NCBI GenBank assembly: GCA_965203325.1
Contig: OZ241875.1
Span: forward strand, 4,290,702-4,354,701
Direction: 5' to 3'
DNA length: 64,000 bases
Origin: a bacterium
GTDB taxonomy: Bacteria > UBA8248
The notes under the pieces were generated by a model, which worked only from the letters and a program-made list of their open reading frames with translations, was not told the origin of the DNA and did not search any database. Numbering within the stretch: position 1 is the first letter of the stretch; the number at the start of each line of letters is the position of its first letter. A program made the position numbers and the translations under genes. This document shows, piece after piece, positions 21,475 through 53,589 of the stretch.

Positions 21475-22053
21475 ATGGATTCTGCCAGACATAATTTCGG
21501 CGAAGTCGAAAAAATAAGAACCGAAGCGATAGGTGTCGCAGGAAAGAGGATTTTCCGCATTCTGATCGATTGCCCGACGAAGTCGGCCGCCACGCTTTGG
21601 CTGGAGAAGGAACAGGTCTATGGTCTTTCGATGGCGATGAAGAAGATGGTGGAGGCGAAAGGGCAGGAGGAACGTTCGAGCGAGGAGCCGGATTTTCCCG
21701 ATATCGCCGAGGTCGGCTCTGCTCCCGTGAGTTCCGGAGGGTTACTCGAATTCAAAGTGAGCCGATTGGGGCTGGCGTATGGTCCGGGCAAGAGCCGCGT
21801 TACGGTCTTTTTTTACGATGAACGAGATGAGGTCGCCTCCGAGGGGGAATCTTCCGAAGAAGAGGAATACGAAGAAGAAGCCGTCGGCCCCGCCGCTTTG
21901 CAGGTGAGTCTCGCGCATGCGCAGTTGGATGAATTCATCAACCAAAGCCTCAATGAATGTTCCTCCGGGCGGGGGACGGATGCACTCTCTCATCACGCCA
22001 TGGTGGCTACCGGCAAGGTCGACCCCAATACGAACGGGCATTTTCGTCATTAA
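21475..22053 (+). CDS. DUF3090-family protein
   Basis: HNFGEVEKIRTEAIGVAGKRIFRILIDCPT... followed by an acidic stretch (SEGESSEEEEYEEE). Resembles the conserved DUF3090 family that pairs with SCO1664-family genes; from memory. ATG 21475 is in frame with track ORF 21454. Confidence 0.6.
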   Translation: MDSARHNFGEVEKIRTEAIGVAGKRIFRILIDCPTKSAATLWLEKEQVYGLSMAMKKMVEAKGQEERSSEEPDFPDIAEVGSAPVSSGGLLEFKVSRLGLAYGPGKSRVTVFFYDERDEVASEGESSEEEEYEEEAVGPAALQVSLAHAQLDEFINQSLNECSSGRGTDALSHHAMVATGKVDPNTNGHFRH

Positions 22054-22085
22054 ATCGCCCTTTTTCTATTCGGCAGGAATATCTC

Positions 22086-22871
22086 GTGGCCCGGAAATTC
22101 TCTCCTCTTGAAGGCCCCGAAACGGTGGATGCGGCCGAATCGCAAGCCTATCGCTTCGAACCGGCGGAAATCGAAAATCTTTTGCTCAACTCGGAAATTC
22201 TGGGCGGTGAGTTGGTGCCGCAAGGCTCGAACTACACGTTCGCCGTGAGGATGAGTGCGGAGGATTTCCAGTTCTGGGGGATATACAAGCCTGCGAGCGG
22301 GGAGAGGCCATTATGGGATTTTCCTTACGGAACGCTCCATTTTCGTGAGAGGTGCTCTTTTCTGGTGAGTCATCATCTGGGATGGCACCTCGTTCCTCCG
22401 ACGGTGATCCGTGAAGGCCCGCACGGGGAGGGTTCCATGCAGTTGTGCGTGCCCTATGACGGAAAATCGAACTATTTCACGCTCCGCGCAGAGGAGCGTC
22501 CGGAACTGGTGCTGATCGCGGCCTTCGACATTATGGTGAACAATACGGATCGCAAGGGCGGCCATTGCTTCAAATCCGAAGACGGCCGCGTTTGGGGAAT
22601 CGATCACGGCCTCACGTTTCATGCGGAACCCAAGCTGCGAACCGTCATCTGGGACTATGCGGGCGTTTCCCTGCCCGAAGCGCAGTTGAACGACGTAAAA
22701 AGGCTGGAGGACAGCCTGCGCGATAGCGATAGCTCTTTAAGGCGTGAGATGGACGAACTTCTGGAGCCCGAGGAAGTGGAAATTTTTCTGGAAAGGGTGA
22801 TTCGCTTTCGAAAAAATCCGTGCCTGCCGACGCCCGAAGAGTACCGGCGTCTGCACTGGCATTTCGAATAG
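22086..22871 (+). CDS. SCO1664-family protein (PI3/PI4-kinase-like catalytic fold)
   Basis: GTG start with AGGAA RBS, 32 nt after the DUF3090 stop. Motifs DIMVNNTDRKGGHCF and GIDHGLTF resemble the catalytic/activation loops of PI3/4-kinase-like proteins. Confidence 0.6.
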   Translation: MARKFSPLEGPETVDAAESQAYRFEPAEIENLLLNSEILGGELVPQGSNYTFAVRMSAEDFQFWGIYKPASGERPLWDFPYGTLHFRERCSFLVSHHLGWHLVPPTVIREGPHGEGSMQLCVPYDGKSNYFTLRAEERPELVLIAAFDIMVNNTDRKGGHCFKSEDGRVWGIDHGLTFHAEPKLRTVIWDYAGVSLPEAQLNDVKRLEDSLRDSDSSLRREMDELLEPEEVEIFLERVIRFRKNPCLPTPEEYRRLHWHFE

Positions 22872-22916
22872 TTTTGAAAACGCCCGGGGAAATGGTGAGA
22901 CGCTGAGGTGTAGGCG

Positions 22917-24233
22917 ATGAGGACCCATACGAACCTGGCCGGGAATCGGTTGTTTTTCTTTCTTCTCTGCTTCATTCTCGGCTCGACGCTCGTCGGGTGC
23001 CCGGAGACTTCGCGCGTGCGCAGGAGGGCGCCGCGCGATGTGATGAACGAAAAACGCTGGTTTGTTCACGACAACCCCGATCATCCACAATCGAAGGTAT
23101 TTCTGGCGGAACTCGATGAGTTTGATTTTGAGCGGGCTACACGAAGGCACACGGCCCTCGCTTACAAAAAGTATCTCGAATATCATTTTACCGGCAAATA
23201 CTTTCGCCGGGCGCGCTATTGGCGGGAGCGGTTGCTGTATCAGGAAGCGCTCGAATCGAAAGAACCCGGCGCCCTCGAAGAGTTCCTGAAGCGCTTTCCT
23301 GAAGGCTGGTTCGAGACACCCTCCGGCGCAGATATCCAAAAGAGTGAGTATGAAGTACTGAGAGAAAAAGACGAGGTCGCATCCTACAGGGCGTTTATTG
23401 AAAAATACGAAAAGGCGCGGAGTGAGTGGACCGAAGCGGCGACCCAGCGCCTCGAAAGACTCCTGCTCGACGCGGCGAAAGCCTCAGGAAGTGTTCTCGG
23501 CCTCGAAAGGTTCGCTTTCGACAATCCCACCAGCCCGTATCTCGAAGAGGCGAAGGGCGCTTTGCGCGCGGTGAGGTTCGAGAGGGCGATGCGATCCGGG
23601 AAGGAGGTGGACTGGAAAGCCTTTGTTCGCAGATTCGAAGGCTCGAAAGAGGCCGCCCTCATGCGGCAGCACATGGAGACGCGGGCGCTCGAAGGGGCCG
23701 AGCGCTCGGGCCGCGTCGCTGCGCTCGAGCAATTTATCGTGCGCTATCCCGATTCGGTTCACAAAGAGCGAATCCTCTCCTCCATCAACAAGATGGCGCA
23801 GGAGAGGAATCAACAAGTCCATCGGTGGGTGCGCGTCGAGAGCGCCGAAGTCGAAGTGTTAAGGAAGCCCAGATGCAAATCGTGCAGGTCCTATCTGCGC
23901 GCCCAAGGCGTGTTGCTCAACACAGACCCCGATTTTTCCTTCGATGTGGGGCTGCAGGTCGAACTCATCCGAAACGGGAAAAAATGCTGCCGCACCAGGC
24001 ACTGGCTCAGAGGGTTGCGGCCCGGGGAGAGCCGCCCGTTTTCATTCCCGCTACGCGGAAAATCACCCAAAAGAGGCAGCCCCGCTCCCCGGTATGAATT
24101 CGAAGTGATATCCGGCTCTGCATATCGGAACCCGCAGGAGGAGCGGGTGATGGAAATCGAAGGTTTGGGTGGAAGAGGCAAGGGCCCCCAAAGCGATCGG
24201 TTCGCGCCCGTCCGGGTTCCCGATCTGAATTAG
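22917..24233 (+). CDS. Hypothetical lipoprotein
   Basis: Signal peptide with lipobox (ILGSTLVGC), 438 aa, charged helical regions and a C-terminal Cys-rich segment (CKSCRS...KKCCRTRHW). No family recognised. Confidence 0.55.
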   Translation: MRTHTNLAGNRLFFFLLCFILGSTLVGCPETSRVRRRAPRDVMNEKRWFVHDNPDHPQSKVFLAELDEFDFERATRRHTALAYKKYLEYHFTGKYFRRARYWRERLLYQEALESKEPGALEEFLKRFPEGWFETPSGADIQKSEYEVLREKDEVASYRAFIEKYEKARSEWTEAATQRLERLLLDAAKASGSVLGLERFAFDNPTSPYLEEAKGALRAVRFERAMRSGKEVDWKAFVRRFEGSKEAALMRQHMETRALEGAERSGRVAALEQFIVRYPDSVHKERILSSINKMAQERNQQVHRWVRVESAEVEVLRKPRCKSCRSYLRAQGVLLNTDPDFSFDVGLQVELIRNGKKCCRTRHWLRGLRPGESRPFSFPLRGKSPKRGSPAPRYEFEVISGSAYRNPQEERVMEIEGLGGRGKGPQSDRFAPVRVPDLN

Positions 24234-24309: not shown

Positions 24310-25212
24310 CTAGCGATTCTTGCGCCCGAGTCTGCGCCGGTTCACTTTCTTGATGTGTTTCGCGATGTAATTCACGAGGGCGGGGTTGCCGATAAGCAGT
24401 GATTGCCGCCATTTGCGCGCGGCGTCCAGGTCTTTGGGCGTGTTCTTCCCGGAGAAGAAGGTATCCAGCTCACGCCACTTGTTCGTGCGGTCGCGCCGGG
24501 CGAGCGTGATGCCCCCCGCTTCTTTCACGATGACGGCGCCCGCCGCCACGTCCCAGATGCTGGGAACGCCGAAGAGCGTATAGTGCAGGCCTCCGCGCGC
24601 TACGAGGGCCTGTTCGTAACACATGGAACCCGTGGCGCGCACTTCGCCCAGGTTCTTCTTGAGGGGTCCCGTGGGGCGGAATTGCGTCCAGTAGGAACCG
24701 GGAAGCGCGACGATGCGCTTTCCCGTGGGTTTCTCCTCTCCCGCCACCTCGATTCGGTGCTTGTTGCGATACGCGCCGCCCCCCTCGTAAGCGTGGTAGA
24801 TGGTGCCTTTGCCCTCCGGCGTGAATATGGCGCCCGCAATCGAACGGCCGCGCCTCAAGACTCCCACCGAACAGCCCCATACGTGCAGTCCGTTCAGGAA
24901 ATTTTTCGTGCCGTCCAGAGGGTCCAGGACCCACAGGTACTCGGGCACCTCGCGCGCGCCCTGTTCTTTGGCCTCTTCTTCGTCTTCGGGCTTCTCTTCG
25001 CCCAGGACGCCGTGCGCCGGAAATTTTTCGTTTATCGCTTTCGTGAGAAACTCCTGGCTCGCGCGGTCGGCTTCGCTCACCGGGTCGGTTTCGGCCTTGT
25101 TCTTGTAGTCCACCTCCACCTGCTTGCCGAAAAGCCCCATCAGGATCTCTCCCGCCTCGCGGGCGAATCTGGAAGCGGCTTCGGCCAATTCGTGAGGAGT
25201 AGGGTCGCTCAT
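24310..25212 (-). CDS. Inositol-monophosphatase-family phosphatase (SuhB/CysQ-like)
   Basis: EEKPEDEE...WVLDPLDGTKNF (DPxDGT metal-binding motif) and WDVAAG C-terminal motif. Overlaps the upstream gene by 4 nt. Confidence 0.8.
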   Translation of the reverse strand: MSDPTPHELAEAASRFAREAGEILMGLFGKQVEVDYKNKAETDPVSEADRASQEFLTKAINEKFPAHGVLGEEKPEDEEEAKEQGAREVPEYLWVLDPLDGTKNFLNGLHVWGCSVGVLRRGRSIAGAIFTPEGKGTIYHAYEGGGAYRNKHRIEVAGEEKPTGKRIVALPGSYWTQFRPTGPLKKNLGEVRATGSMCYEQALVARGGLHYTLFGVPSIWDVAAGAVIVKEAGGITLARRDRTNKWRELDTFFSGKNTPKDLDAARKWRQSLLIGNPALVNYIAKHIKKVNRRRLGRKNR

Positions 25213-26258
25213 TCTCCACGCTCCAGCGGAGGGAGGTCGAGCCTTTGGGCGATCTCATCGAGTTCCGCGAGCCGCTCGCTCGACAGCTCGAACCCGCTTT
25301 CCCGGCGTTCCATCTCGTTTTGATGCTCGATCTCTCCGGGCATGAAAATCGTCTCCACACCCGCCGCTTTCGGTGTGGTTTTGATGATGGAGATGAAGGC
25401 GCCGGCGGCGGCCTGGAATTGCGATACCGGAAGCAGCGCCTCGACGTTGATGGCGACGAAAACGCTTGTGACACGGCTTTTCCCGTGAAATTCGTTGATG
25501 CCCACGATCTCGTGGCTGTGGCCTCCGCCCGCGAGGGAACCCAGAATGGCGTCGATCGCGATGGAAAGCCCGCTGCCCTTGTAGCCCGCAATCGGGGAGA
25601 GGAGGGAGCTTTCGAGAACCTCGTGGGGGTCGGTGGTGGGTCTTCCCTCCTTGTCCAGCCCCCAGCCCTCGGGGATGAGTTCGCCCGCGCGCGCCGCCTC
25701 GATGATGTAGCCCCGGGCCACAACGGAGAGCGCCATGTCCAGCACCATGGGCGGGTCGCTCGGCAGGGCGATAGAGACGGGATTGTTGCCGATCCTGGGT
25801 TCCTTGCCTCCTGCAGGAGGCAGGACGCGCAGCGTGTTCGTCGTAACGAGGCCGACCATGCCGGCTTCGGGGGCCATGGCCGCGTACGTTGCGGCGGCGC
25901 CGAAATGGTTGCTCTCCTTGAGCAGGACGACGCCCACGTTATGGAGCCGCGCGCGGTCGATGGCCTCTTCCATCGCGAGCCTGGAGACCACCTGGCCCAT
26001 GCCGTTGTCGCCGTCTGCGAGCGCGAGTGCGCCTGCGTCTTTGACGACTTTGAAATTGGGAGCCGGATTCGCCAGATTGATTTCCAGGCGCCTGGCGTAG
26101 TGCGGCATGCGGATCACGCCGTGGCTGGTGACGCCGCGCAACTCGGCCGTCACGAGCGTATCCGCCGTCCATGCGGCGTCCTCATCCGGCATGCCCAGCT
26201 TGCTGAAGACTCGCTCTAAAAACACGTGGAGTTTATCGCCCGTCGTGTGTCCGCTCAT
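25209..26258 (-). CDS. Ldh2-family (malate/L-lactate/sulfolactate dehydrogenase type 2) oxidoreductase, paralog A
   Basis: 349 aa. TAELRGVTSHGVIRMPHY and SNHFGAAATYA match the Ldh_2 (Mdh/AllD/ComC) family. Confidence 0.8.
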   Translation of the reverse strand: MSGHTTGDKLHVFLERVFSKLGMPDEDAAWTADTLVTAELRGVTSHGVIRMPHYARRLEINLANPAPNFKVVKDAGALALADGDNGMGQVVSRLAMEEAIDRARLHNVGVVLLKESNHFGAAATYAAMAPEAGMVGLVTTNTLRVLPPAGGKEPRIGNNPVSIALPSDPPMVLDMALSVVARGYIIEAARAGELIPEGWGLDKEGRPTTDPHEVLESSLLSPIAGYKGSGLSIAIDAILGSLAGGGHSHEIVGINEFHGKSRVTSVFVAINVEALLPVSQFQAAAGAFISIIKTTPKAAGVETIFMPGEIEHQNEMERRESGFELSSERLAELDEIAQRLDLPPLERGE

Positions 26259-26873
26259 TCACTCCTCACGCGTGAACAGATAGGCCATCCCGTGCCGGAC
26301 GTGCGCACCCGAATCGACCTCGCTCAGAAAATCGACTCGCGAAACCGACCAGCGGTTCACTTCGCTCAACTCTCGCATGCTCCAACCGGGGGCGTCCCAC
26401 AGCGCTTCGCTCCCGGCATAGCCCGGCCCTTGCTGCACCACCGCCAGGTACCAGCGGATGCTCATCGCCTCCAATATCTGTCGTTCGGCGCCCGAATCGA
26501 ACGGCAGCCAGCAGGAGAACACGAAATCAGGCGCATGGGCGAGGAGCGCCTCCTGCGCGTCCAGGGCTTCGGTACCCTCGCCTCCGGCCGGGTCCGTGAG
26601 TCTCAGGTTCACGCCGCGCGCCTGAAGCGCTTTTCCGATCGTGCCGTCGCCGGCCCCCGCTTCCAGAGGCGCTTCGGGAGCTAACCCTAAGATTTCCTCT
26701 GCCAGTGCGTCCAGCCATTCGACCACGGGAAGCTGGTAGAGGTTTTTCCTCTCGCAGAATACGAGCCAGCCGTCCCCCCGTTCTTCTTCGGCGAGCTTAG
26801 CGATGGCCTCGGCGTAGGGGAGGGGTTTCACCGCCGAAAATCCCGGGCGAGAAACCGGGTCGCCTGCAAGCAA
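26259..26873 (-). CDS. Hypothetical protein, possible class-I SAM-dependent methyltransferase
   Basis: 204 aa with a Gly-rich LEAGAGDGTIGKAL motif (motif-I-like). Weak assignment. Confidence 0.4.
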   Translation of the reverse strand: MLAGDPVSRPGFSAVKPLPYAEAIAKLAEEERGDGWLVFCERKNLYQLPVVEWLDALAEEILGLAPEAPLEAGAGDGTIGKALQARGVNLRLTDPAGGEGTEALDAQEALLAHAPDFVFSCWLPFDSGAERQILEAMSIRWYLAVVQQGPGYAGSEALWDAPGWSMRELSEVNRWSVSRVDFLSEVDSGAHVRHGMAYLFTREE

Positions 26874-26942
26874 GAATTCACCCGCAACCCTGTAAGAAAC
26901 AAACCCCCGGAAATCATCTTCCGGGGGCTGGTGATGAATCTC

Positions 26943-28151
26943 CTAGACGCTGGGCCCATTCCTGTTGATGGCGAAGGCGTTGTCCTCATACAGGATTTCG
27001 GCTTTCGTCATCTTCCCGCTCGCGACTTCGAGCACCTCGTCGTAGACGCGACGTCCGGCCACCTCGATGGGCGCGCCCTCGAAGATGTCCGTCACATCCA
27101 CGTCGGTGGTGTCGGCCTGAAGCCTCGCTGAAAGCGGGTTGCCCGTGATGCGGATGGTGCTCATCAGGGGGTGGTTGATGGTATGGCCGCCGCCCGTGGA
27201 GAAGATGAGCACCTGAGAGCCGCCCGCCGCGATGCCGGTGATGGACTCGCCCCCGTGGCCGGGGGTGTCCATCACGTGGAGGCCGCTCCTGCGGTTCGCG
27301 CGCTTCGCCCAGGGGATCACGTCCACGATGGGGGCCGAGCCCGCCTTCTGGATGGCGCCCAGGGATTTCTCTTCGATCGTGGTCAGGCCGCCCTCCATGT
27401 TGTCGCCCGTGGGCTGGCTGCCCCTGAGATCCACGCCGCAGGCGAGGATGCGCTCTTCCATCTCCTCCACCATCCTCCAGATGCGCTTGCCCAGGGCCGG
27501 CCTCACGCATTTGGCGGCCAGTACGTCCTCGCCGCCCATCATCTCCGTGGTCTCGGCCAAAAGCACGCGTCCGCCCTGATTGACCACCTGGTCCGTCACC
27601 CAGCCGGTGGCCTTGTTGTGCGAGAGGCCCGAGGTAGTGTCCGACGTTCCGCAGTTGACCCCCAACAGGAGCTTGCTCACGGAAACTTCCTGGCGGCGTT
27701 CGTTCGTGAGTTCTCTCAGCATCTCCATGCCGATGCGCGTGGCCTTGGCGGTGGCGTCTATCGCGCCGCCGTCTTCGCGGATGTTGATCGCTTCCACGCG
27801 TTTCCCTGTTTTGGCGATTTCATGGGCGATCTCGTCCGCCGTGCAGCCTTCCTCGCGGTGGTGGTCGATGACAATGACGGCGCCTGCGTTGGCGTTCTGC
27901 CCGTGTCCGACGAGGGTTTCGAACGTGCGCTGAATGTCGGGGCCGATCTGACAGCGTCCCAGCGGGTGGGTGAGGGCGACGCTATGCCGAAGGGTTCTGG
28001 CTACACGCTCGCATGTGGAGTTCGCATAAAGCGTTCCGCTCAACAAGAGCAGGTAGTTTCTCGCGCCCACGTCGCCGTTCTCTCTGGGATATCCCCACCA
28101 GGTTTTTCTCAGACGTTTCGATCTTGCGCCGCTTCCGTTTCTTCTGGCCAT
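26943..28151 (-). CDS. UxaA/GarD-family dehydratase large subunit; SuyB-like ((2R)-sulfolactate sulfo-lyase large subunit candidate)
   Basis: 402 aa. YPRENGDVGARNYLLLLSGT at the N-terminus plus the C-terminal altronate/galactarate dehydratase-like domain. Size matches SuyB (~42 kDa). Confidence 0.7.
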   Translation of the reverse strand: MARRNGSGARSKRLRKTWWGYPRENGDVGARNYLLLLSGTLYANSTCERVARTLRHSVALTHPLGRCQIGPDIQRTFETLVGHGQNANAGAVIVIDHHREEGCTADEIAHEIAKTGKRVEAINIREDGGAIDATAKATRIGMEMLRELTNERRQEVSVSKLLLGVNCGTSDTTSGLSHNKATGWVTDQVVNQGGRVLLAETTEMMGGEDVLAAKCVRPALGKRIWRMVEEMEERILACGVDLRGSQPTGDNMEGGLTTIEEKSLGAIQKAGSAPIVDVIPWAKRANRRSGLHVMDTPGHGGESITGIAAGGSQVLIFSTGGGHTINHPLMSTIRITGNPLSARLQADTTDVDVTDIFEGAPIEVAGRRVYDEVLEVASGKMTKAEILYEDNAFAINRNGPSV

Positions 28152-28166
28152 GGTCGACCTCCTGTC

Positions 28167-28460
28167 TTAAGCGAGGTCGCCGCGGCCGCGGGCGCTCTCT
28201 ATGTTATGCACGTGAATGTAATCGCCCACCTCGATGTCCTTGCTCGCCACACCGATGGACAGGCCGTATTTCATGCAGTGCTCGCCCTTTTTCAGGGGCT
28301 TGATGCAGATTTTGTGGATGTAGGGGATCGCCTGATTCGCCTTGAGCGTCTTGCCCATCTTTCCGTTGAGCATGAGGCGAACGGAGCCCCCCTTCGCCAC
28401 CTTTTCGAGACAGGTGGCGACGTTGTCTCCCTTTTCGATGATCATGGCTGTTACCGGCAT
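28167..28460 (-). CDS. SAF-domain small subunit of split UxaA-family enzyme; SuyA-like
   Basis: 97 aa: MPVTAMIIEKGDNVATCLEKVAKGGSVRL... (SAF/AFP-like beta-clip). Strong RBS (AAGGAG). Lies 15 nt upstream of the large subunit. Confidence 0.65.
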   Translation of the reverse strand: MPVTAMIIEKGDNVATCLEKVAKGGSVRLMLNGKMGKTLKANQAIPYIHKICIKPLKKGEHCMKYGLSIGVASKDIEVGDYIHVHNIESARGRGDLA

Positions 28461-28595
28461 GTTTTCTCCTTCAAAAATTCAGGGCGCGAAAACGCCTCGC
28501 ACCCAGTCATGTGACGGATATATGAGGAACGTCCAATCAACAGCGCCATAAACCTAGCGCATGGGGGCCGACACTTCAACAAGGAGAGGCTTTTC

Positions 28596-29645
28596 TCAAC
28601 TCCCGTGCAACGGCGCCACGCCCACTTCTTCGGCTATCCGGTCCAAATCTTGTGCGAGGGCTTCTTTGATTGTGATGCCCTCGGTCAGGGCGGCCTGATA
28701 CCTGCGGTGCGCCCCTTCGCCGGGGATGCGGATTTCATCGAAGCCGGGCGCCAGGCCCGAGGCCTTGATGCGCGTCACGGCTTCATCCACCGCCGCCTCA
28801 TAGTCGCCGCCCAGGCATCTCTCCGGGTCAATCGCCATGGCGAACATCGGCAGGCCGAAGGGCTTGTCCGTCTCCAGCCAGTCGGGCTGGGCGGCGTCGA
28901 AGCCGTTGCCGGTAAGCGCTCCCGTCAGGAAGGTGAACATGAGCGCCAGGCCGTATCCCTTGTAATCGCCAAGTGGCAGCATGGTTCCCCTGGCGGCGAG
29001 CGTGGCGTCCGTGGTCGGGTTGCCCGAAGGGTCGAGCGCCCAGCCCTCGGGGATCGGCTCGCCCGTCCGGGCGGCCAGCAGCACGTAGCCTCTCGCCACC
29101 TTGGAGGTGGCGATGTCGAAGAGGATGGGATATTCCTGGTTCGAGGGAACCGCGAAAGCGACCGGGTTGTTCCCGATCATTCGCTCGTAACCGCCCCACG
29201 GGGCGAGGTTTCCCACCGCGCCGCTGATGACCACCCCGATCATCCCGTGTTCGAGCGCCATCGCGGCGAAATAGCCGATGTGGCCCGTGTGGGAGGACTT
29301 GCGGATAGCGGACGCCCCGATGCCGCCGACCTTCGCCTTCTCGATAGCGGCCTCCATGGCGCGACGCGCGACTACGGCGCTCATGCCGTAGTCCCCGTCC
29401 AGGAGCGTAAAAGCGGGCAGATCGGTGATGGTTCGCACACTGGGCTTCGGGTTCGCCGTCCCGTTTCTCAGGCGCTCCACGAAGACCCCGAAGCGAACGC
29501 ACCCGTGCGAACTCACGCCCCTCAGTTCGGCGTCCACAATCTGGGCCGCGCACGCATTGGCGTCCGCCTCGGGCAGGCCCAGTGCCTGGTAGACGCGCGC
29601 GAGATAGGCGTGAAGGTCTTTCGCGTGAACTTTGATGTCCGGCAT
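28596..29645 (-). CDS. Ldh2-family oxidoreductase, paralog B
   Basis: MPDIKVHAKDLHAYL..., DAELRGVSSHGCVRF, HTGHIGYFA. Start ATG 29645 with GGGAGA RBS; the track ORF extends to 29681. Confidence 0.8.
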   Translation of the reverse strand: MPDIKVHAKDLHAYLARVYQALGLPEADANACAAQIVDAELRGVSSHGCVRFGVFVERLRNGTANPKPSVRTITDLPAFTLLDGDYGMSAVVARRAMEAAIEKAKVGGIGASAIRKSSHTGHIGYFAAMALEHGMIGVVISGAVGNLAPWGGYERMIGNNPVAFAVPSNQEYPILFDIATSKVARGYVLLAARTGEPIPEGWALDPSGNPTTDATLAARGTMLPLGDYKGYGLALMFTFLTGALTGNGFDAAQPDWLETDKPFGLPMFAMAIDPERCLGGDYEAAVDEAVTRIKASGLAPGFDEIRIPGEGAHRRYQAALTEGITIKEALAQDLDRIAEEVGVAPLHGS

Positions 29646-29772: not shown

Positions 29773-30861
29773 ATGAAAGCGTGGCGTTTTTACGCCTTTG
29801 GCGATATGCGGTTGGATGAGGTGCCGGACCCCGAGGTGAAGCCGGGCTGGGCCGTGTGCAAGGTGCGGCGGGTGCAGCCGAGCATCACGGACGTGCAGAG
29901 GTCCTTGGGAATCGGAACCATCAATTCGGCGCTTTTGAGGGAAATGCTCGAAAAATATGCGCCCGTGCAGTTGCTGGGGCACGAGATGAGCGCGGAAGTC
30001 GTCGAGGTGGGCGATGGCGTCGAGCACTTAACTCCGGGCGACAGGGTATGCACCTCGGGCCACGTGCCGTGCCTCAATTGCAGTTTCTGCCGCGAGGGCC
30101 GGGAGATGTACTGCATCGACAAGCTGCACGTGGGCATCAACACGCCGGGCGCATTCGCCGAATACATCTCGCTTCCGGCGCACGGACTCGTCAGGCCGCC
30201 CCAGACGCTGGACGATTCATCCATCGCCTGTCTGCAGCCGCTTTCCTCCACGGTCGCCGCCATGCGCGATGCGAAGGTTCAGCCGGGCGAGACGGTGGCC
30301 ATCACCGGTCAGGGGGTCATGGGCCTCTATGCCTTACAGGCTGCGCGCACCTGCGGGGCGGGCGCCGTCTACGTGAGCGACGTGAAGGATGAAGCCCTTG
30401 CCTTGAGCCGCAAGTTCGGGGCGGATGAAGTGATCGACGCGCGGGTTGATGATCCCGTCGAGAGGGTGATGGAGATTACGGAGGGCAGGGGCGTCGACCT
30501 CGTCTTCGAGTGCGCGGGCGGGAACGCGGATCAGGGGCTTTCGGGCCACACCACCCTGCACCAGGCGACGCGCATGGTGCGCATCGGCGGGCGCGTCATC
30601 CAGGTCGCGGGTCTCATCGGAGATGTGAAATTCGACCCGGTCTTCATGCGCGCCCAGGGGGTTCAGTGGATTTACCCGGAAGGCCATGGCGCGGATACCG
30701 TGGCTCTGGGCGGAAAATGGGTGGCCAGTGGAAGGATCGACGTGAACTCTCTCATCACGCACGAGGAGCACGGCATCGAAAACCTGCCCCGCGTGATGGA
30801 GATCACCGACAAGAAGGCAGAGTACCGGGCCACGAACCCTTGCCAACTCGTTCTGGCTTAA
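29773..30861 (+). CDS. Zinc-dependent alcohol dehydrogenase (MDR superfamily)
   Basis: GHEMSAEVVEVG (catalytic Zn motif), structural Zn Cys4 (CTSGHVPCLNCSFCREGREMYC), GxGxxG (ITGQGVMG). RBS GGAGGA precedes ATG 29773. Confidence 0.85.
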   Translation: MKAWRFYAFGDMRLDEVPDPEVKPGWAVCKVRRVQPSITDVQRSLGIGTINSALLREMLEKYAPVQLLGHEMSAEVVEVGDGVEHLTPGDRVCTSGHVPCLNCSFCREGREMYCIDKLHVGINTPGAFAEYISLPAHGLVRPPQTLDDSSIACLQPLSSTVAAMRDAKVQPGETVAITGQGVMGLYALQAARTCGAGAVYVSDVKDEALALSRKFGADEVIDARVDDPVERVMEITEGRGVDLVFECAGGNADQGLSGHTTLHQATRMVRIGGRVIQVAGLIGDVKFDPVFMRAQGVQWIYPEGHGADTVALGGKWVASGRIDVNSLITHEEHGIENLPRVMEITDKKAEYRATNPCQLVLA

Positions 30862-30906: not shown

Positions 30907-31695
30907 ATGGACCTTGGGTTGAAGGGAAAGATCGCTATCGTGACGGGCGCGAGCCGGGGCATCGGACGTGAATGCGCGATCGCGCTGGCGAGAGAGGGCG
31001 CTCGCGTGTGCGTTACGGCGCGCGATGAGGCGCTTTTGGCTACGGCAGTGGAAGATGTGAACGCCGCAGGGGGCGAGGGAATGTCCGTCTCCTCCGATCT
31101 GAACTCTCTCGATGGCTGCAAGAAGGTGGTCGATGCGTGCGTCGCGAATTTCGGCGGCGTGGACATCCTCGTCAACAGCGCGGGCGCGGCGCGTGGCGGA
31201 GACATTCTTGAGCTCGACGCGGAGTTTATTACCGAGGCGCTCACGCTCAAGACATATGGGTATCTGCGCATGTCCCAGTTGGTGATCCCCCACATGAAGA
31301 AAAACGCCTGGGGCCGCATCGTGAACATCGCAGGCGGCGCGGGCACGAGCCCGGCGCGGGGGAACATCCCCACGAGTGCGGCGAACATCACGGTGCTCAA
31401 CAACACGAGGGCGCTCTCGGACGCCGTGGCGGGAGATGGGATTCAGGTGAATACCGTATGTCCGGGCATGACGAACACGCAGCGCGCGCGCGACCTCATG
31501 CAGGGACCCGCGGACAAGGCCGGCAAGGACGTGGAGGAGTTCTTGAAAGAAGTCGGCGCGAGGACGCCCGCCGGCAGAATCGCCGAGCCCGAGGAGGTGG
31601 CGAACGTCGCCGCGTTCCTGGCCTCCGCCGCGTGTTCTTACGTGAACGGCACTTCCCTCTACATGGACGGCGGCGGCCGCCGGGCGACGCCGTAG
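30907..31695 (+). CDS. SDR-family oxidoreductase
   Basis: KIAIVTGASRGIGRE, NSAG, YxxxK. RBS AAGGAGA. Confidence 0.85.
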   Translation: MDLGLKGKIAIVTGASRGIGRECAIALAREGARVCVTARDEALLATAVEDVNAAGGEGMSVSSDLNSLDGCKKVVDACVANFGGVDILVNSAGAARGGDILELDAEFITEALTLKTYGYLRMSQLVIPHMKKNAWGRIVNIAGGAGTSPARGNIPTSAANITVLNNTRALSDAVAGDGIQVNTVCPGMTNTQRARDLMQGPADKAGKDVEEFLKEVGARTPAGRIAEPEEVANVAAFLASAACSYVNGTSLYMDGGGRRATP

Positions 31696-31783: not shown

Positions 31784-32857
31784 ATGGCGAAACTTTTCGA
31801 TGAATTTTCTTTGCGGGGCGTGACGCTCAGGAACCGGATTTGCGTGTCCCCCATGTGCCAGTACAGCGCTGAGGACGGCAAGCTTACCGACTGGCATCTC
31901 GTGCACCTTGGCGCCCGCGCGGCAGGCGGCGCGGGCCTGGTGATGGTCGAGATGACGAACGTGGAGGCGCGGGGACGCATTACGCACGGTTGCTCCGGCA
32001 TTTGGTCGGATGAGCATGTTGAACCGCTGGCGCGGGTCGCGCGCTTCGTCGCCGGCCAGGGGGCCGTCGCCGGGATTCAGATAGGCCACGCAGGACGCAA
32101 GGGCAGCTGCGCGCCCACCTGGGAGGGCGGGGGCTATCTCTCCGATGAGGAGGGCGGATGGGAGATCGTGGCGCCGAGCGCGATCCCGTTTCACGAGAAG
32201 GCGCGCGTACCCAGGGCGTTGAACGTCGAGGAGATCGCCGTGATTCAGGAGGCGTTTCGCCAGGGCGCGAGACGAGCAGACGAAGCGGGTTTCGGGTGGC
32301 TCGAGATTCACGGCGCGCACGGGTATCTGTTCCACAGCTTCCATTCTCCGGTTTCGAATCACAGAGATGATAACTACGGCGGCAGCTTCGAGAACCGCAT
32401 CCGTTTCACGGTGGAGACGGTCCGGATTGTGAGGGAACAATGGCCGGAGGATAAACCGCTCGCCATACGCCTCTCGTGCACCGATTATTACGAGGGCGGC
32501 TGGACGCTCGATGAAACGGTTGAGTTGGCGAAAATCCTCAAAACCGAAGGAGTCGACCTCATCGATTGCAGTGGGGGCGGGGGAACGCCGCTGGCGAAGA
32601 TTCCTGTGGGTCCGGGCTATCAGGTGCCGCTATCGCAAGCCGTGCGTTCGGGAGCCGACATACCCACCGCCACCGTGGGCATGATCACCCAGGCGTGGCA
32701 GGCGGATCAGATTGTCCGAAACGGTGAGGCCGACCTCGTTTTCATGGCGCGCGAGATGCTGCGCGAGCCTTATTGGCCGCAAAAGGCGGCCGCCGCACTC
32801 GGCGTGATGGATGAGGCCTATGTCGCCGACCAATACCACCGCGCCCACGGCAGATGA
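31784..32857 (+). CDS. Old-Yellow-Enzyme-family NAD(P)H:flavin oxidoreductase (YqjM/NemA-like)
   Basis: ICVSPMCQYSA, HAGRKG, HGAHGYLFHSFHSPVSNHRDDNYGGSFENR are classic OYE motifs. Confidence 0.85.
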   Translation: MAKLFDEFSLRGVTLRNRICVSPMCQYSAEDGKLTDWHLVHLGARAAGGAGLVMVEMTNVEARGRITHGCSGIWSDEHVEPLARVARFVAGQGAVAGIQIGHAGRKGSCAPTWEGGGYLSDEEGGWEIVAPSAIPFHEKARVPRALNVEEIAVIQEAFRQGARRADEAGFGWLEIHGAHGYLFHSFHSPVSNHRDDNYGGSFENRIRFTVETVRIVREQWPEDKPLAIRLSCTDYYEGGWTLDETVELAKILKTEGVDLIDCSGGGGTPLAKIPVGPGYQVPLSQAVRSGADIPTATVGMITQAWQADQIVRNGEADLVFMAREMLREPYWPQKAAAALGVMDEAYVADQYHRAHGR

Positions 32858-33005: not shown

Positions 33006-34190
33006 ATGAACCACATTTTTTCGCGCGTCTTGAAACGCGCTACTTTCTGGGTTGCGTTCGTCGTAGCGATTGGTTTGTTGGGCGGCCCGCTCGTTGGTGA
33101 CGTGCCGGCGGCCAAGAAGAAACCGCTTCGCTTCGGGGTCGCCGACCCCCTGACGGGGCCTGCCGCGATTTTCGGCAAAGATCAGATGCAGGCGGTGCGC
33201 TGGGCGGTCGAGGACATCAACGCCAAGGGCGGCGTCAACGGCCATCCGCTCGAGGCCATCATTCTGGATCATCAGGCGAAGCCCGAGGTCGGCATCGCGG
33301 TGGTCAACCGCTTCGTCCACGTGGAGAAGGTCCCCGTGTACATCACCGCGTTCAGCAACGTGGTCAAGGCGGTCGCGCCCATCGCGAACCGCGAGAAGGT
33401 GCTGATGCTCAGCGTGGGCGCGAACGCGCCGGCCATCGCACGGCTGGGCGATTACGTCTATACGACTTTCCCGCTGGCCGACGTGGATATGAACGCCTTG
33501 GGCAAATACGCTTATCAGAAGATGGGCAAACGCCGCGCCGCCGTCTTGCACGTGAACCACGAGACGGGCCGGGACGGCGCCAAGGTTTTCAGCAACAGCT
33601 TCAAGAAGGCCGGCGGCAAAATCGTCGTCTATGAGTCCTATGAGCAGGAGCGGTCGGACTTCACCGGCCTGGTGCTCAAGGTGAAAGCGGCGAATCCCGA
33701 CATCATCCACATCCACAGCGTGATCCGCGATTTCACGGCCGTCGTCGCGCAGATGCGTCAGCTCGGTGTGAAGACCCAGATCACCAGCTACCAGACAGCC
33801 TTCAACCCAAAGATGATCCAGCAGTTGGGCAAGGGGGCCGAGGGCATCATCGTGACCGCGCTGGCTCCCAGCGTGGAGGACAACAAGAACCTGCCCGCCT
33901 ATATCGAGCGCTGGAAAAAGGCGTACAAGCGCATGCCCATCGGGCTGCCCTATACGCAGTATTTCTACGATGCGCCCTATATCGTTGCGGCGCTCTACAA
34001 ATGGGTGCTGGACAAGAAGCTGCCGATCACGGGCGAGAACATGCGCAAGGCGCTGGTGGCAATCAAGACGTTCGAGCAGCCCTTGACCAATACGGTGACG
34101 ATCAACGACGACCACACGGTCAAGAAACCGGTCTATTTCTGGCAGGTGAAGGGTGGTAAATTCACGTTAATCGGTTCCCAGAAGGACTGA
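33006..34190 (+). CDS. ABC branched-chain amino acid (LivK/LivJ-type) substrate-binding protein
   Basis: Signal peptide. LRFGVADPLTGPAAIFGKDQMQAVRWAVEDINAKGGVNGHPLE is typical of Peripla_BP_6 Leu/Ile/Val-binding proteins. Confidence 0.8.
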   Translation: MNHIFSRVLKRATFWVAFVVAIGLLGGPLVGDVPAAKKKPLRFGVADPLTGPAAIFGKDQMQAVRWAVEDINAKGGVNGHPLEAIILDHQAKPEVGIAVVNRFVHVEKVPVYITAFSNVVKAVAPIANREKVLMLSVGANAPAIARLGDYVYTTFPLADVDMNALGKYAYQKMGKRRAAVLHVNHETGRDGAKVFSNSFKKAGGKIVVYESYEQERSDFTGLVLKVKAANPDIIHIHSVIRDFTAVVAQMRQLGVKTQITSYQTAFNPKMIQQLGKGAEGIIVTALAPSVEDNKNLPAYIERWKKAYKRMPIGLPYTQYFYDAPYIVAALYKWVLDKKLPITGENMRKALVAIKTFEQPLTNTVTINDDHTVKKPVYFWQVKGGKFTLIGSQKD

Positions 34191-34209
34191 TCCCGAATGT
34201 TTCCTCTGC

Positions 34210-34245
34210 GTGGGCGCGCCGACGGGCGCGCCCACCGGGATTTTA
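34210..34245 (+). promoter_or_regulatory. Perfect 11-bp stem-loop (GTGGGCGCGCC-gacg-GGCGCGCCCAC) + TTTT between binding-protein and permease genes
   Basis: Seen directly: stem 34210-34220 / 34225-34235, TTTT at 34241-34244. Located 20 nt after the livK-like stop and 20 nt before livH. Candidate intra-operon attenuator. Confidence 0.4.
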
Positions 34246-34264
34246 CCGTGTGTGACGTCAAGCC

Positions 34265-35212
34265 ATGCTGACCTGGGGGATTTTGGGGCAGCTCCTGTGG
34301 ACGGGCTTCGCCGCCGCGACCTATTACTGCCTGTTCGCGGTCGCCTTCTCACTCGTCCTCAAAGTCAACAAGATATGGAACTTCGCCCAGGCGGGGGTGA
34401 TGGTGTTCGCCTACTACTCCCTGCTCGTGGCGTTCCGGCACTGGGGTTTACCGCTGGTTCCCGCCCTGGTTTTCGGGCTCCTGGTAACGCTTGGCGTATC
34501 GCTCGCCCTCGAGCGCTATGCCTTCATGGTTTTCCGCGACCGCAACTCCTCGATCCTGACCCTGTTCATCTTCACGATCGTGTTTTCTGAGTTCTCGGTC
34601 TACCTCATGGAACTGGTCTTCGGAACCGAACCGCAGACGCTTTACCCGAGCCTGTTGTGGCCCGTCGACTTATACGCCGGCATTGCGATCAGCCACTGGG
34701 ACTTGATGGCGATTGCGGTGACGGCGGTGCTGATGCTGCTCCTCTACCTGTTCATCCACCGCACGCGCTACGGCCGGTATCTGATTGCCGTCGCCGATAA
34801 CGAGAATCTGGCCGAAATATACGGTATCAGCCGAAAGCGCGCCTACGGCGTTTCGATCTCCATCGCTGCGGTGCTCATCACCGCCGGCATGTATCTCTTC
34901 GGGACCAAGGCGGCGCTGTTTCCCTCCACGCCGCTCCAGCATCTGTTGATCTTCGCCGTCATCGCGACGATTCTGGCCGGGATCGGCAACATCTTTCGCG
35001 CCGGAATCGCGGCGGTCGCGCTGAGCCTCATACAGGCTTTCAGCATTCTCGTCATCGCCTCCAAATGGCAGGCGTTGCTGGCCTATATTCTGATATTCGT
35101 CGTCATCATCTTCTTCCCGCGCGGTTTCGCCTTGCCGCGCAAGCTGAGCGGGCTGGTGAGACCATCGGGACGTTCCGCCGCCGTGGCGGTGGCCGACCCT
35201 GCGGGAGACTGA
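34265..35212 (+). CDS. Branched-chain amino acid ABC permease (LivH-like)
   Basis: 315 aa, ~8 TM; sequence and size match the LivH/BraD family. Confidence 0.8.
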   Translation: MLTWGILGQLLWTGFAAATYYCLFAVAFSLVLKVNKIWNFAQAGVMVFAYYSLLVAFRHWGLPLVPALVFGLLVTLGVSLALERYAFMVFRDRNSSILTLFIFTIVFSEFSVYLMELVFGTEPQTLYPSLLWPVDLYAGIAISHWDLMAIAVTAVLMLLLYLFIHRTRYGRYLIAVADNENLAEIYGISRKRAYGVSISIAAVLITAGMYLFGTKAALFPSTPLQHLLIFAVIATILAGIGNIFRAGIAAVALSLIQAFSILVIASKWQALLAYILIFVVIIFFPRGFALPRKLSGLVRPSGRSAAVAVADPAGD

Positions 35213-35219
35213 ACCGAAA

Positions 35220-36134
35220 ATGGAATATATCCTCACCGTCATGGTGCTCATCGGGATCAACGTGATCCTCGCTACGAGCTTCAACCTCATTCTGGGGTAC
35301 GGCGGGCTGATGAGCGTCGCCCATCCCATCTTCTATGCCATCGGGGCTTATTGCTCAGGACTTCTGGCGATTCACCTGCAGATTCCGGTTCCGCTCTCTA
35401 TCCTGATAGGAGCAGCAATCGCGATGGTGCTTTCGTTCGGCGTGTCTTTGCCCTCGCTTCGCGTGTCGGGCGATTACCTCGTCATCGCCAGCATCGGGTT
35501 TCAGTTGGGTATACTGCACGTTATCAACAACCTCGAATTCACCGGCGCGGCCGGCGGGCTGACCAACATTCCGGTGCTGAACGAAGGCCCCTCGAGAAGT
35601 CTCGTCTTCGTCCTGCTCATCGCGGTCGTCGCAGCCTGCGCGGTTATGCTTGTGGGCTGGATCGTCGAAGGCGATTACGGGCGGGCCATCACCGCCATGC
35701 GCAACGACGAGGAGGCCTTCAGCGCCCTGGGCCGTAACGCGATGAACATCAAGATCGTCTTGTTCGCCATCGGCTCGGGCATGGCCGGCCTGGCGGGCGC
35801 GCTCTATGCCCATTATTTCGCCTACGTCACGCCCGAGCAGTTTGGCATATTCACTTCCGCGGCCCTGTTGACGATGGTGGTCGTGGGCGGCGCCGCCACG
35901 ACGTGGGGACCCCTGGTGGGCGCGGTGCTCCTGACGACCCTTCCGCAAGCCATCACGTTTCTTGGTCTGCCCGTCTCCATCATGGCGCCGCTTCAGGGCG
36001 TCATCTACACGACGCTCGTTATTTCCTTCCTCTTCACGCGGCCCCAGGGCCTGACGGGAGGCACCAGGGGCGGTGGAGGGCTCGAGGCCTGGAGCGCGAG
36101 CGCGGCCTTCAGGGCGAGGAGGGATGCGGAGTGA
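35220..36134 (+). CDS. Branched-chain amino acid ABC permease (LivM-like)
   Basis: 304 aa, multi-TM. Sits between LivH and the ATPase genes. Confidence 0.8.
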   Translation: MEYILTVMVLIGINVILATSFNLILGYGGLMSVAHPIFYAIGAYCSGLLAIHLQIPVPLSILIGAAIAMVLSFGVSLPSLRVSGDYLVIASIGFQLGILHVINNLEFTGAAGGLTNIPVLNEGPSRSLVFVLLIAVVAACAVMLVGWIVEGDYGRAITAMRNDEEAFSALGRNAMNIKIVLFAIGSGMAGLAGALYAHYFAYVTPEQFGIFTSAALLTMVVVGGAATTWGPLVGAVLLTTLPQAITFLGLPVSIMAPLQGVIYTTLVISFLFTRPQGLTGGTRGGGGLEAWSASAAFRARRDAE

Positions 36135-36901: not shown

Positions 36902-36914
36902 TCGAGAGAGAGCG

Positions 36915-37605: not shown

Positions 37606-37629
37606 AATCGTCGGTGCGATTGCTTTTTT
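37606..37629 (+). terminator. Weak intrinsic terminator after liv operon (AATCG-tcggtg-CGATT + GCTTTTTTATTTT)
   Basis: 5-bp stem followed by a T-tract, 8 nt after the livF stop. It overlaps the convergent gene's stop. Confidence 0.35.
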
Positions 37630-53424: not shown

Positions 53425-53589
53425 CTCCTAAGAAAATGTTGATTTGGCACTGCGAGAAAGTTGCGCCATCTTAGCCCGTCTTTGCGCTTTTCGGGAAGTC
53501 GCGCCGGGGTGCGGTTCGCCTTGCGGGTTGCGCTTTTGTTTTGTCAAAATGCGCTTCTTTTCGGGAATGCTGTCTGGAACAGGGGAGAG

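Follow-up and report, generated by a model that had tools for sequence, protein, structure and literature searches.

A candidate SuyAB-like sulfolactate sulfo-lyase module bracketed by two Ldh2-family dehydrogenases in Nitrospinota

Gene content and organization of the cluster

In this work, we characterized a gene cluster encoding a split lyase of the UxaA/GarD superfamily, located on the minus strand at positions 24310-29645 of a 64,000-nt stretch of contig OZ241875.1 (hereafter the window, to whose full length all coordinates refer), which has a G+C content of ~60% and whose closest public relatives are Nitrospinota metagenome-assembled genomes (MAGs). To judge from their names, several of these relatives are presumably derived from sponges. 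The cluster comprises six genes arranged in the order Ldh2-a, small lyase subunit, large lyase subunit, open reading frame ORF190, Ldh2-b and IMPase, all transcribed in the same direction (Table 1). We propose, with a probability of roughly 0.55, that it constitutes a SuyAB-like sulfolactate sulfo-lyase module with one or more ComC-type feeder dehydrogenases, the strongest evidence being the comparative gene context of its relatives.

The two lyase genes are separated by a 15-nt spacer that carries AGGAGG, the stop codon of ORF190 abuts the start of Ldh2-b (TGAATG), and Ldh2-b and IMPase share an ATGA overlap, formed by the stop codon of the former and the start codon of the latter. An initial annotation of this DNA had described a 97-aa and a 402-aa subunit with this spacing and a strong ribosome-binding site, two Ldh2-family genes bracketing the pair, the overlap at 25209-25212, a third Ldh2 paralogue elsewhere in the window, and a size and architecture like those of SuyAB; all of these features were found as described, the dehydrogenase assignments being confirmed by Pfam and the architecture by the reference loci presented below. 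The open reading frame of ORF190 spans 26259-26873; the GTG at 26831 is its most likely true start, because homologues and an independent gene call both give 190 aa.

A terminator scan returned 11 sites against 6.3 +/- 2.9 expected, which is not significant overall, and only the two strongest intergenic hairpins are reported. As these lie after Ldh2-a and after the large subunit, the cluster may comprise up to three transcription units; since ORF190, Ldh2-b and IMPase continue in the same direction, the hairpin 3' of the large subunit may act as an attenuator or partial terminator.

Table 1. Features of the lyase cluster and of the adjoining region of the window.
Feature	Coordinates	Strand	Evidence or remark
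Ldh2-a, Ldh2-family NAD(P)-dependent 2-hydroxy/2-oxo-acid dehydrogenase, 349 aa	28596..29645	-	Pfam Ldh_2, E 3e-107
Terminator-like hairpin between Ldh2-a and small subunit	28482..28504	-	10-bp stem, 6 GC pairs, T-rich tail; consensus match only
Small (SAF / beta-clip) lyase subunit, 97 aa	28167..28460	-	Weak SAF match; GarD N-terminus TIGR03248, E 1.5e-7
Large catalytic subunit, UxaA/GarD superfamily, 402 aa	26943..28151	-	PF04295, E 2e-23; PF20629, E 1e-71
Terminator-like hairpin directly 3' of the large-subunit stop	26902..26929	-	12-bp stem, 7 GC pairs, then TGTTTCTT
ORF190, predicted class I S-adenosylmethionine (SAM)-methyltransferase-like fold, 190 aa	26259..26831	-	Homologue lengths, Foldseek
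Ldh2-b, Ldh2-family dehydrogenase, 349 aa	25209..26258	-	Pfam Ldh_2, E 4e-110
IMPase/CysQ/HisN-superfamily phosphatase (IMPase), 300 aa	24310..25212	-	Pfam Inositol_P, E 7e-48
MDR Zn-dehydrogenase	29773-30861	+	Pfam; divergent from Ldh2-a
SDR	30907-31695	+	Pfam; divergent from Ldh2-a
Old-Yellow-Enzyme (OYE) flavoprotein	31784-32857	+	Pfam; divergent from Ldh2-a
Liv-type (branched-chain-type) ABC transporter	33006-37598		Adjoins the divergent MDR/SDR/OYE block

Conservation among Nitrospinota

By scanning one genome per species we obtained 80 loci, whose neighbouring genes were mapped by tblastn with proteins from informative loci. Thirty-five loci belong to Nitrospinota, and 28 of these are well flanked (at least 4 kb on both sides); a large subunit 100% identical to that of the window was found in locus L045 (OZ241996.1). 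All 28 well-flanked Nitrospinota loci show the order Ldh2-a, small subunit, large subunit, ORF190, (Ldh2-b), IMPase, at large-subunit identities as low as ~83%. Ldh2-a and IMPase are each present in 28/28, while two Nitrospinota loci, L041 and L043, lack Ldh2-b but keep the rest of the cluster. IMPase occurs in no lyase locus from another phylum and is a Nitrospinota-specific addition to the cluster. Furthermore, the divergent OYE-SDR-(MDR) genes are syntenic with the lyase cluster in 22-28 of the 28 loci. The flanking ABC transporter was considered as a further part of the module and dropped, being conserved only in close relatives.

Sister large subunits, 74-77% identical to that of the window, with an N-terminal extension and the residues S-R-H-C at the active-site positions described below, stand alone in two Nitrospinaceae MAGs (L005:8001-9230 and L015:8001-9233), with no small subunit, ORF190 or Ldh2 nearby; the former adjoins an Opp-type transporter and an SDR, and the neighbours of the latter are unrelated.

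Homology of the lyase subunits

SuyAB has been purified from Paracoccus pantotrophus. As references we used two SuyAB loci from a plasmid collection, namely those of C. pinatubonensis (hpsN-hpsO-MFS-hpsP-suyA-suyB) and P. versutus (GntR-suyA-suyB-putative sulfate exporter), the latter suyR-AB-Z arrangement mirroring the published suyRABZ of P. pantotrophus, together with UxaA and GarD of E. coli MG1655. The window pair, with 97 and 402 aa, resembles the reference SuyA (93-96 aa) and SuyB (391-393 aa) in the lengths of its subunits (~95 and ~395 aa), in the SAF-type small subunit and in the PF04295/PF20629 domain set of the large one. Such a split layout is no distinguishing mark of SuyAB, since the L-fuconate dehydratase of Paraburkholderia mimosarum is heteromeric as well (PMC6336799).

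The SAF match of the small subunit is weak (E 0.0025, below the Pfam cut-off). Over 54 residues, about half its length, the protein shares 39% identity with C. pinatubonensis SuyA, and it is 48% identical to the small subunit of a related locus, L002; its C-terminus, ES.RGRGDLA, is common to homologues from Haloarcula, Haloferax, Sporomusa and L002. Regarding the large subunit, the best match among solved structures is GarD (6U7L, E 3e-28), and the curated galactarate dehydratase model TIGR03248 scores 130.6 bits, short of its cut-off of 730.85. It shares superfamily, domain set and, presumably, beta-elimination from a 2-hydroxy acid with UxaA, GarD and the D-idonate and D-arabinonate dehydratases, but is only 27-29% identical to E. 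coli UxaA and GarD. A higher identity, 45%, was found with a Haloarcula plasmid protein.

Active-site signature and phylogeny of the large subunit

According to Watanabe et al. (PMC6336799), four Cys residues (Cys134/173/208/276 of C785_RS13685), proposed as iron ligands, are conserved throughout the UxaA/GarD dehydratases "except for sulfolactate sulfo-lyase". We compared these sites in an alignment of 156 sequences, made up of the 150 representatives of an exhaustive search, from which fragments below 350 aa had been removed, together with references and close relatives. The large subunit of the window reads Y-R-R-C and the authentic SuyB proteins L/I-R-gap-C, in contrast to C-C-C-C in 81 dehydratase-type sequences. 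Thus, three of the four Cys are missing in the window protein, as in SuyB, and only the fourth is kept (C167 in GVNCGTSD); the second site is occupied in both by an Arg within the motif HP.GR.Q (HPLGRCQ in the window protein), whereas the third holds a basic residue in the window protein and a gap in SuyB. The Arg of the second site, Arg66, is shared by every member of the window clade and by each of the 33 other R-type sequences; the corresponding residue is a Cys in 81/81 of the CCCC sequences. Asp at position 300, present in 78% of the CCCC sequences, is lost in the window protein and in most R-type sequences; position 300 and Arg66 were the only specificity-determining positions found between the two types. 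Moreover, 110 columns are invariant across the window clade, among members down to 43% identity, which suggests a conserved chemistry.

In neighbour-joining trees, the window clade was monophyletic in 59/60 bootstraps and joined a Haloarcula clade in 60/60. Its sister group was wholly R-type in 29/50 and mostly R-type in 37/50 replicates, and in the best tree the window clade lies beside the SuyB clade. With respect to placement among SuyB, GarD and UxaA, which the initial annotation had named as a check, no firm clustering with altronate or galactarate dehydratases was observed, but the bootstrap for a sister relation with SuyB is low. On these sequence comparisons, the large subunit is best regarded as a member of a separate subfamily that bears the active-site signature of SuyB, to which its overall similarity does not anchor it.

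Relatives in other phyla and their sulfoquinovose context

Beyond Nitrospinota, the window clade is found in Planctomycetota, Acidobacteriota, Gemmatimonadota, Latescibacterota and Bacillota (including Bacillota isolates), with large subunits 54-65% identical to that of the window, whereas SuyAB is found in Alpha- and Betaproteobacteria. The clusters of these relatives carry sulfoquinovosidase, transaldolase or SqiK/SqiA, aldehyde dehydrogenase and PSE/TauE exporters, and so resemble SuyAB loci in having exporters, sulfolactate-forming enzymes and a ComC-type Ldh2 nearby; unlike those of UxaA and GarD, their contexts are sulfonate clusters rather than uronate or aldarate clusters. A typical Planctomycetota order is GntR, TAL_FSA, aldehyde dehydrogenase, NagB/Pgl-like, PIG-L-family, small subunit, large subunit, ORF192, (PSE exporter), Ldh2, 2-Hacid_dh, MFS and GFO/IDH/MocA; locus L014 carries TauE, GntR, TAL_FSA, Aldedh, small subunit, large subunit, ORF192, a LarA-like gene and MFS. 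In the isolate Salsuginibacillus halophilus (L094), a YihQ homologue, 56% identical to the E. coli sulfoquinovosidase and with R301/W304/Y508 kept, is followed by genes for a FucI-like/SqvD-like isomerase and a PFK-family kinase, by GntR, and by genes for a class II aldolase, an aldehyde dehydrogenase and a TctC-type binding protein; next come the two lyase subunits and a D-isomer-specific 2-hydroxyacid dehydrogenase, and an Ldh2 lies ~7 kb further downstream. This gene set matches the published sulfo-EMP2 enzymes, SqvD, SqiK, SqiA and sulfolactaldehyde dehydrogenase (PMC9594981).

Feature frequencies were counted within 6 kb in the 34 loci from other phyla that extend at least 4 kb downstream. 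An ORF190 homologue was present in 23 of them, sulfoglycolysis genes in 12 and a PSE or TauE exporter in nine. Regarding possible racemising partners, Ldh2 was accompanied by a D-2-hydroxyacid dehydrogenase in 16/34 loci and by a LarA-like gene in 1/34; Ldh2 only was found in three, a LarA-like gene only in five, and neither partner in ten.

'Extended' sulfoglycolysis clusters that include SuyAB have been described as sulfo-TAL clusters of Thermotogae and Chloroflexi (PMC9594981). The relatives of the window are likewise found in clusters with TAL_FSA and aldehyde dehydrogenase or with YihQ-SqvD-SqiK-SqiA (sulfo-EMP2-like), and their gene content would imply complete sulfoquinovose mineralisation; in contrast, the Nitrospinota cluster consists of the terminal module only, with no sulfoglycolysis genes.

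The Haloarcula relative mentioned above is encoded on a plasmid of Haloarcula litorea (L007, NZ_CP119780.1, 6625-10162) by a locus with, in order, a PSE-family putative sulfate exporter, small subunit, large subunit (pattern Y-R-G-C) and Ldh2. Its flanks hold sugar-acid genes (GH3, enolase-superfamily, CtBP-like D-2-hydroxyacid dehydrogenase, DHDPS-family aldolase, aldehyde dehydrogenase and Gfo6), which makes this locus a candidate haloarchaeal sulfosugar/sulfolactate pathway. On Haloferax volcanii pHV3 (L008, 8025-10408) the order is reversed, large then small, followed by a partial UxaA-family gene, near enolase-superfamily and Gfo/Idh/MocA genes; its A-A-T-C pattern represents an independent Cys loss without Arg.

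Other variants were observed around the lyase genes. A PIG-L-family (deacetylase-type) gene together with a weak glucosamine-6-P isomerase/6-phosphogluconolactonase match (E 0.003; type example L014:5996-7638) lies upstream of the small subunit, between TAL_FSA/Aldedh and the lyase, in Planctomycetota and relatives (L057, L060, L062, L063, L068, L077, L079 and L080), and could point to a route for an amino or N-acetylated sulfosugar, or to a lactonase reaction. In three Latescibacterota loci (L013:6800-9173, L049 and L050), a PLP-dependent PALP-family gene is found directly upstream of the small and large subunits and an ORF190 homologue ~1.5 kb downstream; these loci possibly represent a form of the module that is linked to cysteate or to amino acids. 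A Peptococcaceae MAG (L095:2120-5118) carries two tandem pairs of small and large subunits, the large ones 36% and 54% identical to that of the window, with a LarA-like gene downstream.

The Ldh2-family dehydrogenases and sulfolactate racemisation

Both dehydrogenases have the L-sulfolactate dehydrogenase of M. jannaschii (ComC/MdhII, an L-sulfolactate/malate dehydrogenase; 2X06) as best PDB relative (E 3.5e-64 for Ldh2-a and 2.4e-71 for Ldh2-b) and the corresponding model NF040650 as best NCBIfam match. They are 39% identical to each other and conserve the catalytic motifs SHG, GNNP, ARGY and KG, but substrate specificity is not readable from such comparisons. In a tree of the family, Ldh2-a, Ldh2-b and the third paralogue form a group separate from the Ldh2s linked to the lyase in other phyla, and out of 80 positions conserved in the latter, Ldh2-a keeps 41 (with HFG changed to HTG, for example) and Ldh2-b 50; neither analysis singled out an orthologue of the lyase-linked Ldh2 among the Nitrospinota paralogues. 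The third paralogue (52321-53424, minus strand, 367 aa) is divergent from a gene of the isocitrate/isopropylmalate/tartrate dehydrogenase family (53461-54645), and probably has a separate hydroxy-acid function, since no lyase lies nearby.

Sulfoglycolysis yields (S)-sulfolactate and SuyAB is specific for the R form; in the published route, SlcC and ComC convert (S)-sulfolactate via sulfopyruvate to (R)-sulfolactate, which is then cleaved to pyruvate and sulfite (PMC12421959, PMC9594981, PMC13436972). The SlcC/ComC two-dehydrogenase racemase is that of Chromohalobacter salexigens (Denger and Cook, 2010, as cited in PMC12421959). The window cluster resembles it in that an Ldh2-family (ComC-type) gene adjoins the lyase, which would open a sulfopyruvate route to the R enantiomer, but differs in that the window lacks an SlcC-type beta-hydroxyacid dehydrogenase and Nitrospinota have two Ldh2 paralogues. 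No homologue of 2-Hacid_dh or of a beta-hydroxyacid dehydrogenase (query, E. coli YihU) was found in the window, nor any D-2-hydroxyacid dehydrogenase, SlcC-type or LarA homologue in the Nitrospinota clusters. In the relatives, Ldh2 is joined by a D-isomer-specific 2-hydroxyacid dehydrogenase (PF02826/PF00389), or a LarA-like protein is found instead. An Ldh2 plus a D-type dehydrogenase, or a LarA-type racemase, beside the lyase in sulfolactaldehyde-producing clusters is, by analogy, what the published route would predict.

The LarA-like protein (Lar_N plus LarA_C, nickel-pincer racemase family) is encoded beside the lyase at L014:9768-11039 and L002:4630-5907, and also in L056, L081, L086, L087, L089, L091 and L095. 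Most of these loci lack the pair of lyase-linked Ldh2 and D-2-hydroxyacid dehydrogenase, and the LarA-like protein is a candidate single-enzyme sulfolactate racemase; in the literature searched we found nothing that links LarA to sulfolactate racemisation, nor any mention of a "sulfolactate racemase".

As for Nitrospinota, (S)-sulfolactate might be oxidised by the second Ldh2 paralogue or by the conserved SDR or MDR. Another possibility is a direct supply of (R)-sulfolactate, sulfopyruvate or cysteate to the organism. The MDR and SDR were also compared with the 2,3-dihydroxypropane-1-sulfonate (DHPS) racemase HpsP/HpsO of C. pinatubonensis; at 31-32% identity the relationship is at family level only and gives no evidence for the use of DHPS, and HpsN is absent from all Nitrospinota loci.

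ORF190 and the IMPase-superfamily phosphatase

ORF190 of the window has no Pfam or NCBIfam match. Its 52 homologues are nearly all 190 aa long; that of L014 shows a weak Methyltransf_23 match (E 0.0066), and that of L002, 34% identical (E 8e-31), directly follows the large subunit. An AlphaFold2 model of ORF190 (pLDDT 78.7) returned only methyltransferases in a Foldseek search against the PDB (E 3e-4, TM ~0.5), and its EAGAGDG and LTD segments may correspond to the glycine-rich motif I and the acidic residue after strand 2 of class I methyltransferases. Being conserved directly after the large subunit across phyla, ORF190 would be part of the lyase system, and we regard it as a probable conserved accessory or third component of this lyase clade, not an incidental neighbour; such a methyltransferase-fold third gene distinguishes the window clade from SuyAB.

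The IMPase scored below the cut-off of its subfamily models (HisN 128 vs 275, CysQ 107 vs 229), with all NCBIfam equivalogs far below theirs, and its PDB relatives are generic IMPase/SuhB proteins, so that no specific function emerged from the PDB and NCBIfam searches.

Proposed function and alternative explanations

On the observed gene content, homologies, Cys-to-Arg signature and synteny across the 80 loci we build a model in which we infer the substrate, the stereochemistry and the role of every accessory gene. If the reaction resembles those of SuyAB and of UxaA/GarD, the large subunit and the SAF small subunit would together remove the C2 proton of (2R)-3-sulfolactate, and sulfite would be eliminated from C3 to give enol-pyruvate and then pyruvate plus sulfite. 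At least one Ldh2 would act in the role of ComC, interconverting 3-sulfopyruvate and (R)-sulfolactate, and through it a substrate such as (S)-sulfolactate, sulfopyruvate or cysteate could reach the lyase. The SuyAB-like lyase put forward in the initial annotation is supported as regards architecture, Cys loss with the Arg signature and the sulfonate clusters of relatives, but not as a close orthologue of SuyB.

Several observations weigh against the proposed sulfo-lyase function. With authentic SuyB the large subunit shares no more than 34-36% identity (35% with that of P. versutus), less than the 42% found with a Cys-containing split homologue from Sporomusa, and profile hidden Markov models of the SuyB clade, other R-type sequences, and the Cys-containing split and full-length groups scored it at 373-407 bits with no discrimination; SuyA ends in KTKRW, unlike the small subunit of the window. 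A clade spanning the window group and the SuyB references was purely R-type in only 20/60 replicates, and the SuyB references fell inside the sister group in only 11/50. Ldh2-a and Ldh2-b reach 252.4 and 271.6 bits against NF040650, both below the 500-bit cut-off. Genes for exporters, HpsN, sulfoglycolysis or sulfite handling were found neither in the window nor in the 28 Nitrospinota loci. A neighbouring racemase gene is no specific mark of sulfolactate, since the Cys-containing enzyme of Sporomusa (L009) likewise has a LarA-like gene at its side. Finally, every member of the lyase clade is known from sequence alone.

An alternative is a hydroxy-acid dehydratase with OH as leaving group, acting on a small 2,3-dihydroxy or sugar acid (D-glycerate, tartrate or altronate-like), with the Ldh2s processing a 2-oxo or 2-hydroxy acid before or after it and the sulfoquinovose context of the relatives not transferring to Nitrospinota. 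Source annotations read "altronate dehydratase large subunit" or "UxaA family hydrolase", the large subunit resembles Cys-containing split homologues overall as closely as it does SuyB, heteromeric dehydratases are known in the superfamily (PMC6336799), the deep phylogeny of the large subunit is weakly supported, and the Nitrospinota neighbourhood offers only generic dehydrogenases (MDR, SDR, OYE) with no sulfonate genes; in addition, Cys ligands were lost several times independently in the superfamily, as the AATC, STDC and EYDC patterns of the alignment indicate. We nevertheless consider a dehydratase unlikely, though it is the alternative that we take most seriously: it would lack three of the four Cys kept by every characterised dehydratase, the Cys-to-Arg change has so far been tied only to SuyB (PMC6336799), the 110 invariant columns persist down to 43% identity, and the nearest informative relatives occur with TauE/PSE exporters, a sulfoquinovosidase that keeps the sulfonate-binding residues and sulfolactaldehyde-type aldehyde dehydrogenases. 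That the lyase pair is a unit of its own, with Ldh2, ORF190 and IMPase serving unrelated functions, is very improbable. Terminator-like hairpins do separate Ldh2-a, the lyase pair and the downstream genes, and IMPase has no obvious place in sulfolactate chemistry; however, the gene order persists in 28/28 well-flanked Nitrospinota loci, in contrast to the loss of the adjoining ABC transporter, lyases of unrelated phyla again have ORF190 and an Ldh2 as neighbours, and the stop and start codons of ORF190, Ldh2-b and IMPase abut or overlap.

Within the sulfo-lyase interpretation, the initial annotation had proposed that Ldh2-a and Ldh2-b have opposite stereospecificity, racemise sulfolactate via sulfopyruvate and feed an (R)-specific lyase. 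The lyase of other phyla is almost always accompanied by a racemising device (Ldh2 plus D-2-hydroxyacid dehydrogenase, or LarA-like), the Nitrospinota cluster and window have none of these partners (D-2-hydroxyacid dehydrogenase, SlcC-type or LarA) and yet two Ldh2 genes, and Ldh2-a diverges more from the lyase-linked positions (41 vs 50 of 80; HFG to HTG). Such an all-Ldh2 racemase is possible, but we hold it to be doubtful and do not adopt it as the default, because the paralogues group apart, as lineage-specific duplicates that share their catalytic motifs, other phyla carry a single Ldh2, and Ldh2-b is missing from L041 and L043; moreover, the conserved SDR or MDR could supply a D-specific activity. 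A further point against this proposal is that no characterised Ldh2 enzyme is known to use anything but L-configured substrates or the equivalent face.

A more far-reaching combination, which we regard as speculative and distinctly unlikely in its entirety, is that the small subunit, the large subunit and ORF190 form a distinct three-component sulfolactate-desulfonating system, the main uncounted route of C3-sulfonate mineralisation outside Proteobacteria (in Planctomycetota, Acidobacteriota, Gemmatimonadota, Nitrospinota and some Bacillota), and that this system receives its substrate, in the marine and possibly sponge-associated Nitrospinota, from a racemase made up of Ldh2 enzymes only, one paralogue having shifted to D-configured (S)-sulfolactate after a recent duplication.

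Significance

A 2026 review depicts sulfonate C-S cleavage as a trait of restricted phylogenetic range, seldom inherited together with sulfoglycolysis, in which Alpha- and Betaproteobacteria predominate (PMC13436972). If the window clade were a sulfolactate lyase, surveys based on canonical suyAB would miss a large set of degraders, because its members carry the names "altronate dehydratase large subunit" or "UxaA family hydrolase"; complete mineralisation of sulfoquinovose by a single cell would then be a trait of many Planctomycetota, Acidobacteriota, Gemmatimonadota and Bacillota, and Nitrospinota would gain a heterotrophic, sulfite-yielding trait. Under the three-component, all-Ldh2 combination, the cluster would moreover hold the first D-specific Ldh2 enzyme, and a phylum known for nitrite oxidation would gain organosulfonate carbon, as well as sulfite as an electron donor.

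The general idea is known, as extended sulfoglycolysis clusters containing SuyAB have already been described (PMC9594981). What appears to be new is the distinct and probably mislabelled clade, its methyltransferase-fold partner, the Ldh2 plus 2-Hacid_dh or LarA-like partners, and the occurrence in Nitrospinota with a duplicated Ldh2 and an IMPase; our literature searches found nothing that links Nitrospinota to sulfolactate metabolism and, on UxaA-family subfamilies, nothing directly relevant beyond PMC6336799. The LarA-type sulfolactate racemase, the pair of Ldh2 and D-2-hydroxyacid dehydrogenase, and the methyltransferase-fold lyase partner, none of which we found described in the literature searched, constitute testable candidates, and the clade has cultured carriers in Salsuginibacillus halophilus, S. 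kocurii, Salirhabdus euzebyi and Brevibacillus massiliensis.

Other features of the window

The remainder of the window encodes, according to Pfam, cytochrome c maturation proteins, ABC transporters, hydrolases, KARI and a P-type ATPase, and these scans revealed no sulfite or sulfonate genes there. Convergent on the IMPase gene, two plus-strand open reading frames of 304 and 438 aa that match no Pfam family (21957-24233; local G+C 0.56) are syntenic with the cluster in divergent Nitrospinota, at 40-65% identity. Further away, a 456-aa protein (37628-38998) contains two RidA / L-PSP (enamine/imine deaminase) domains in an unusual tandem, flanked by an SDR and an alpha/beta-hydrolase.

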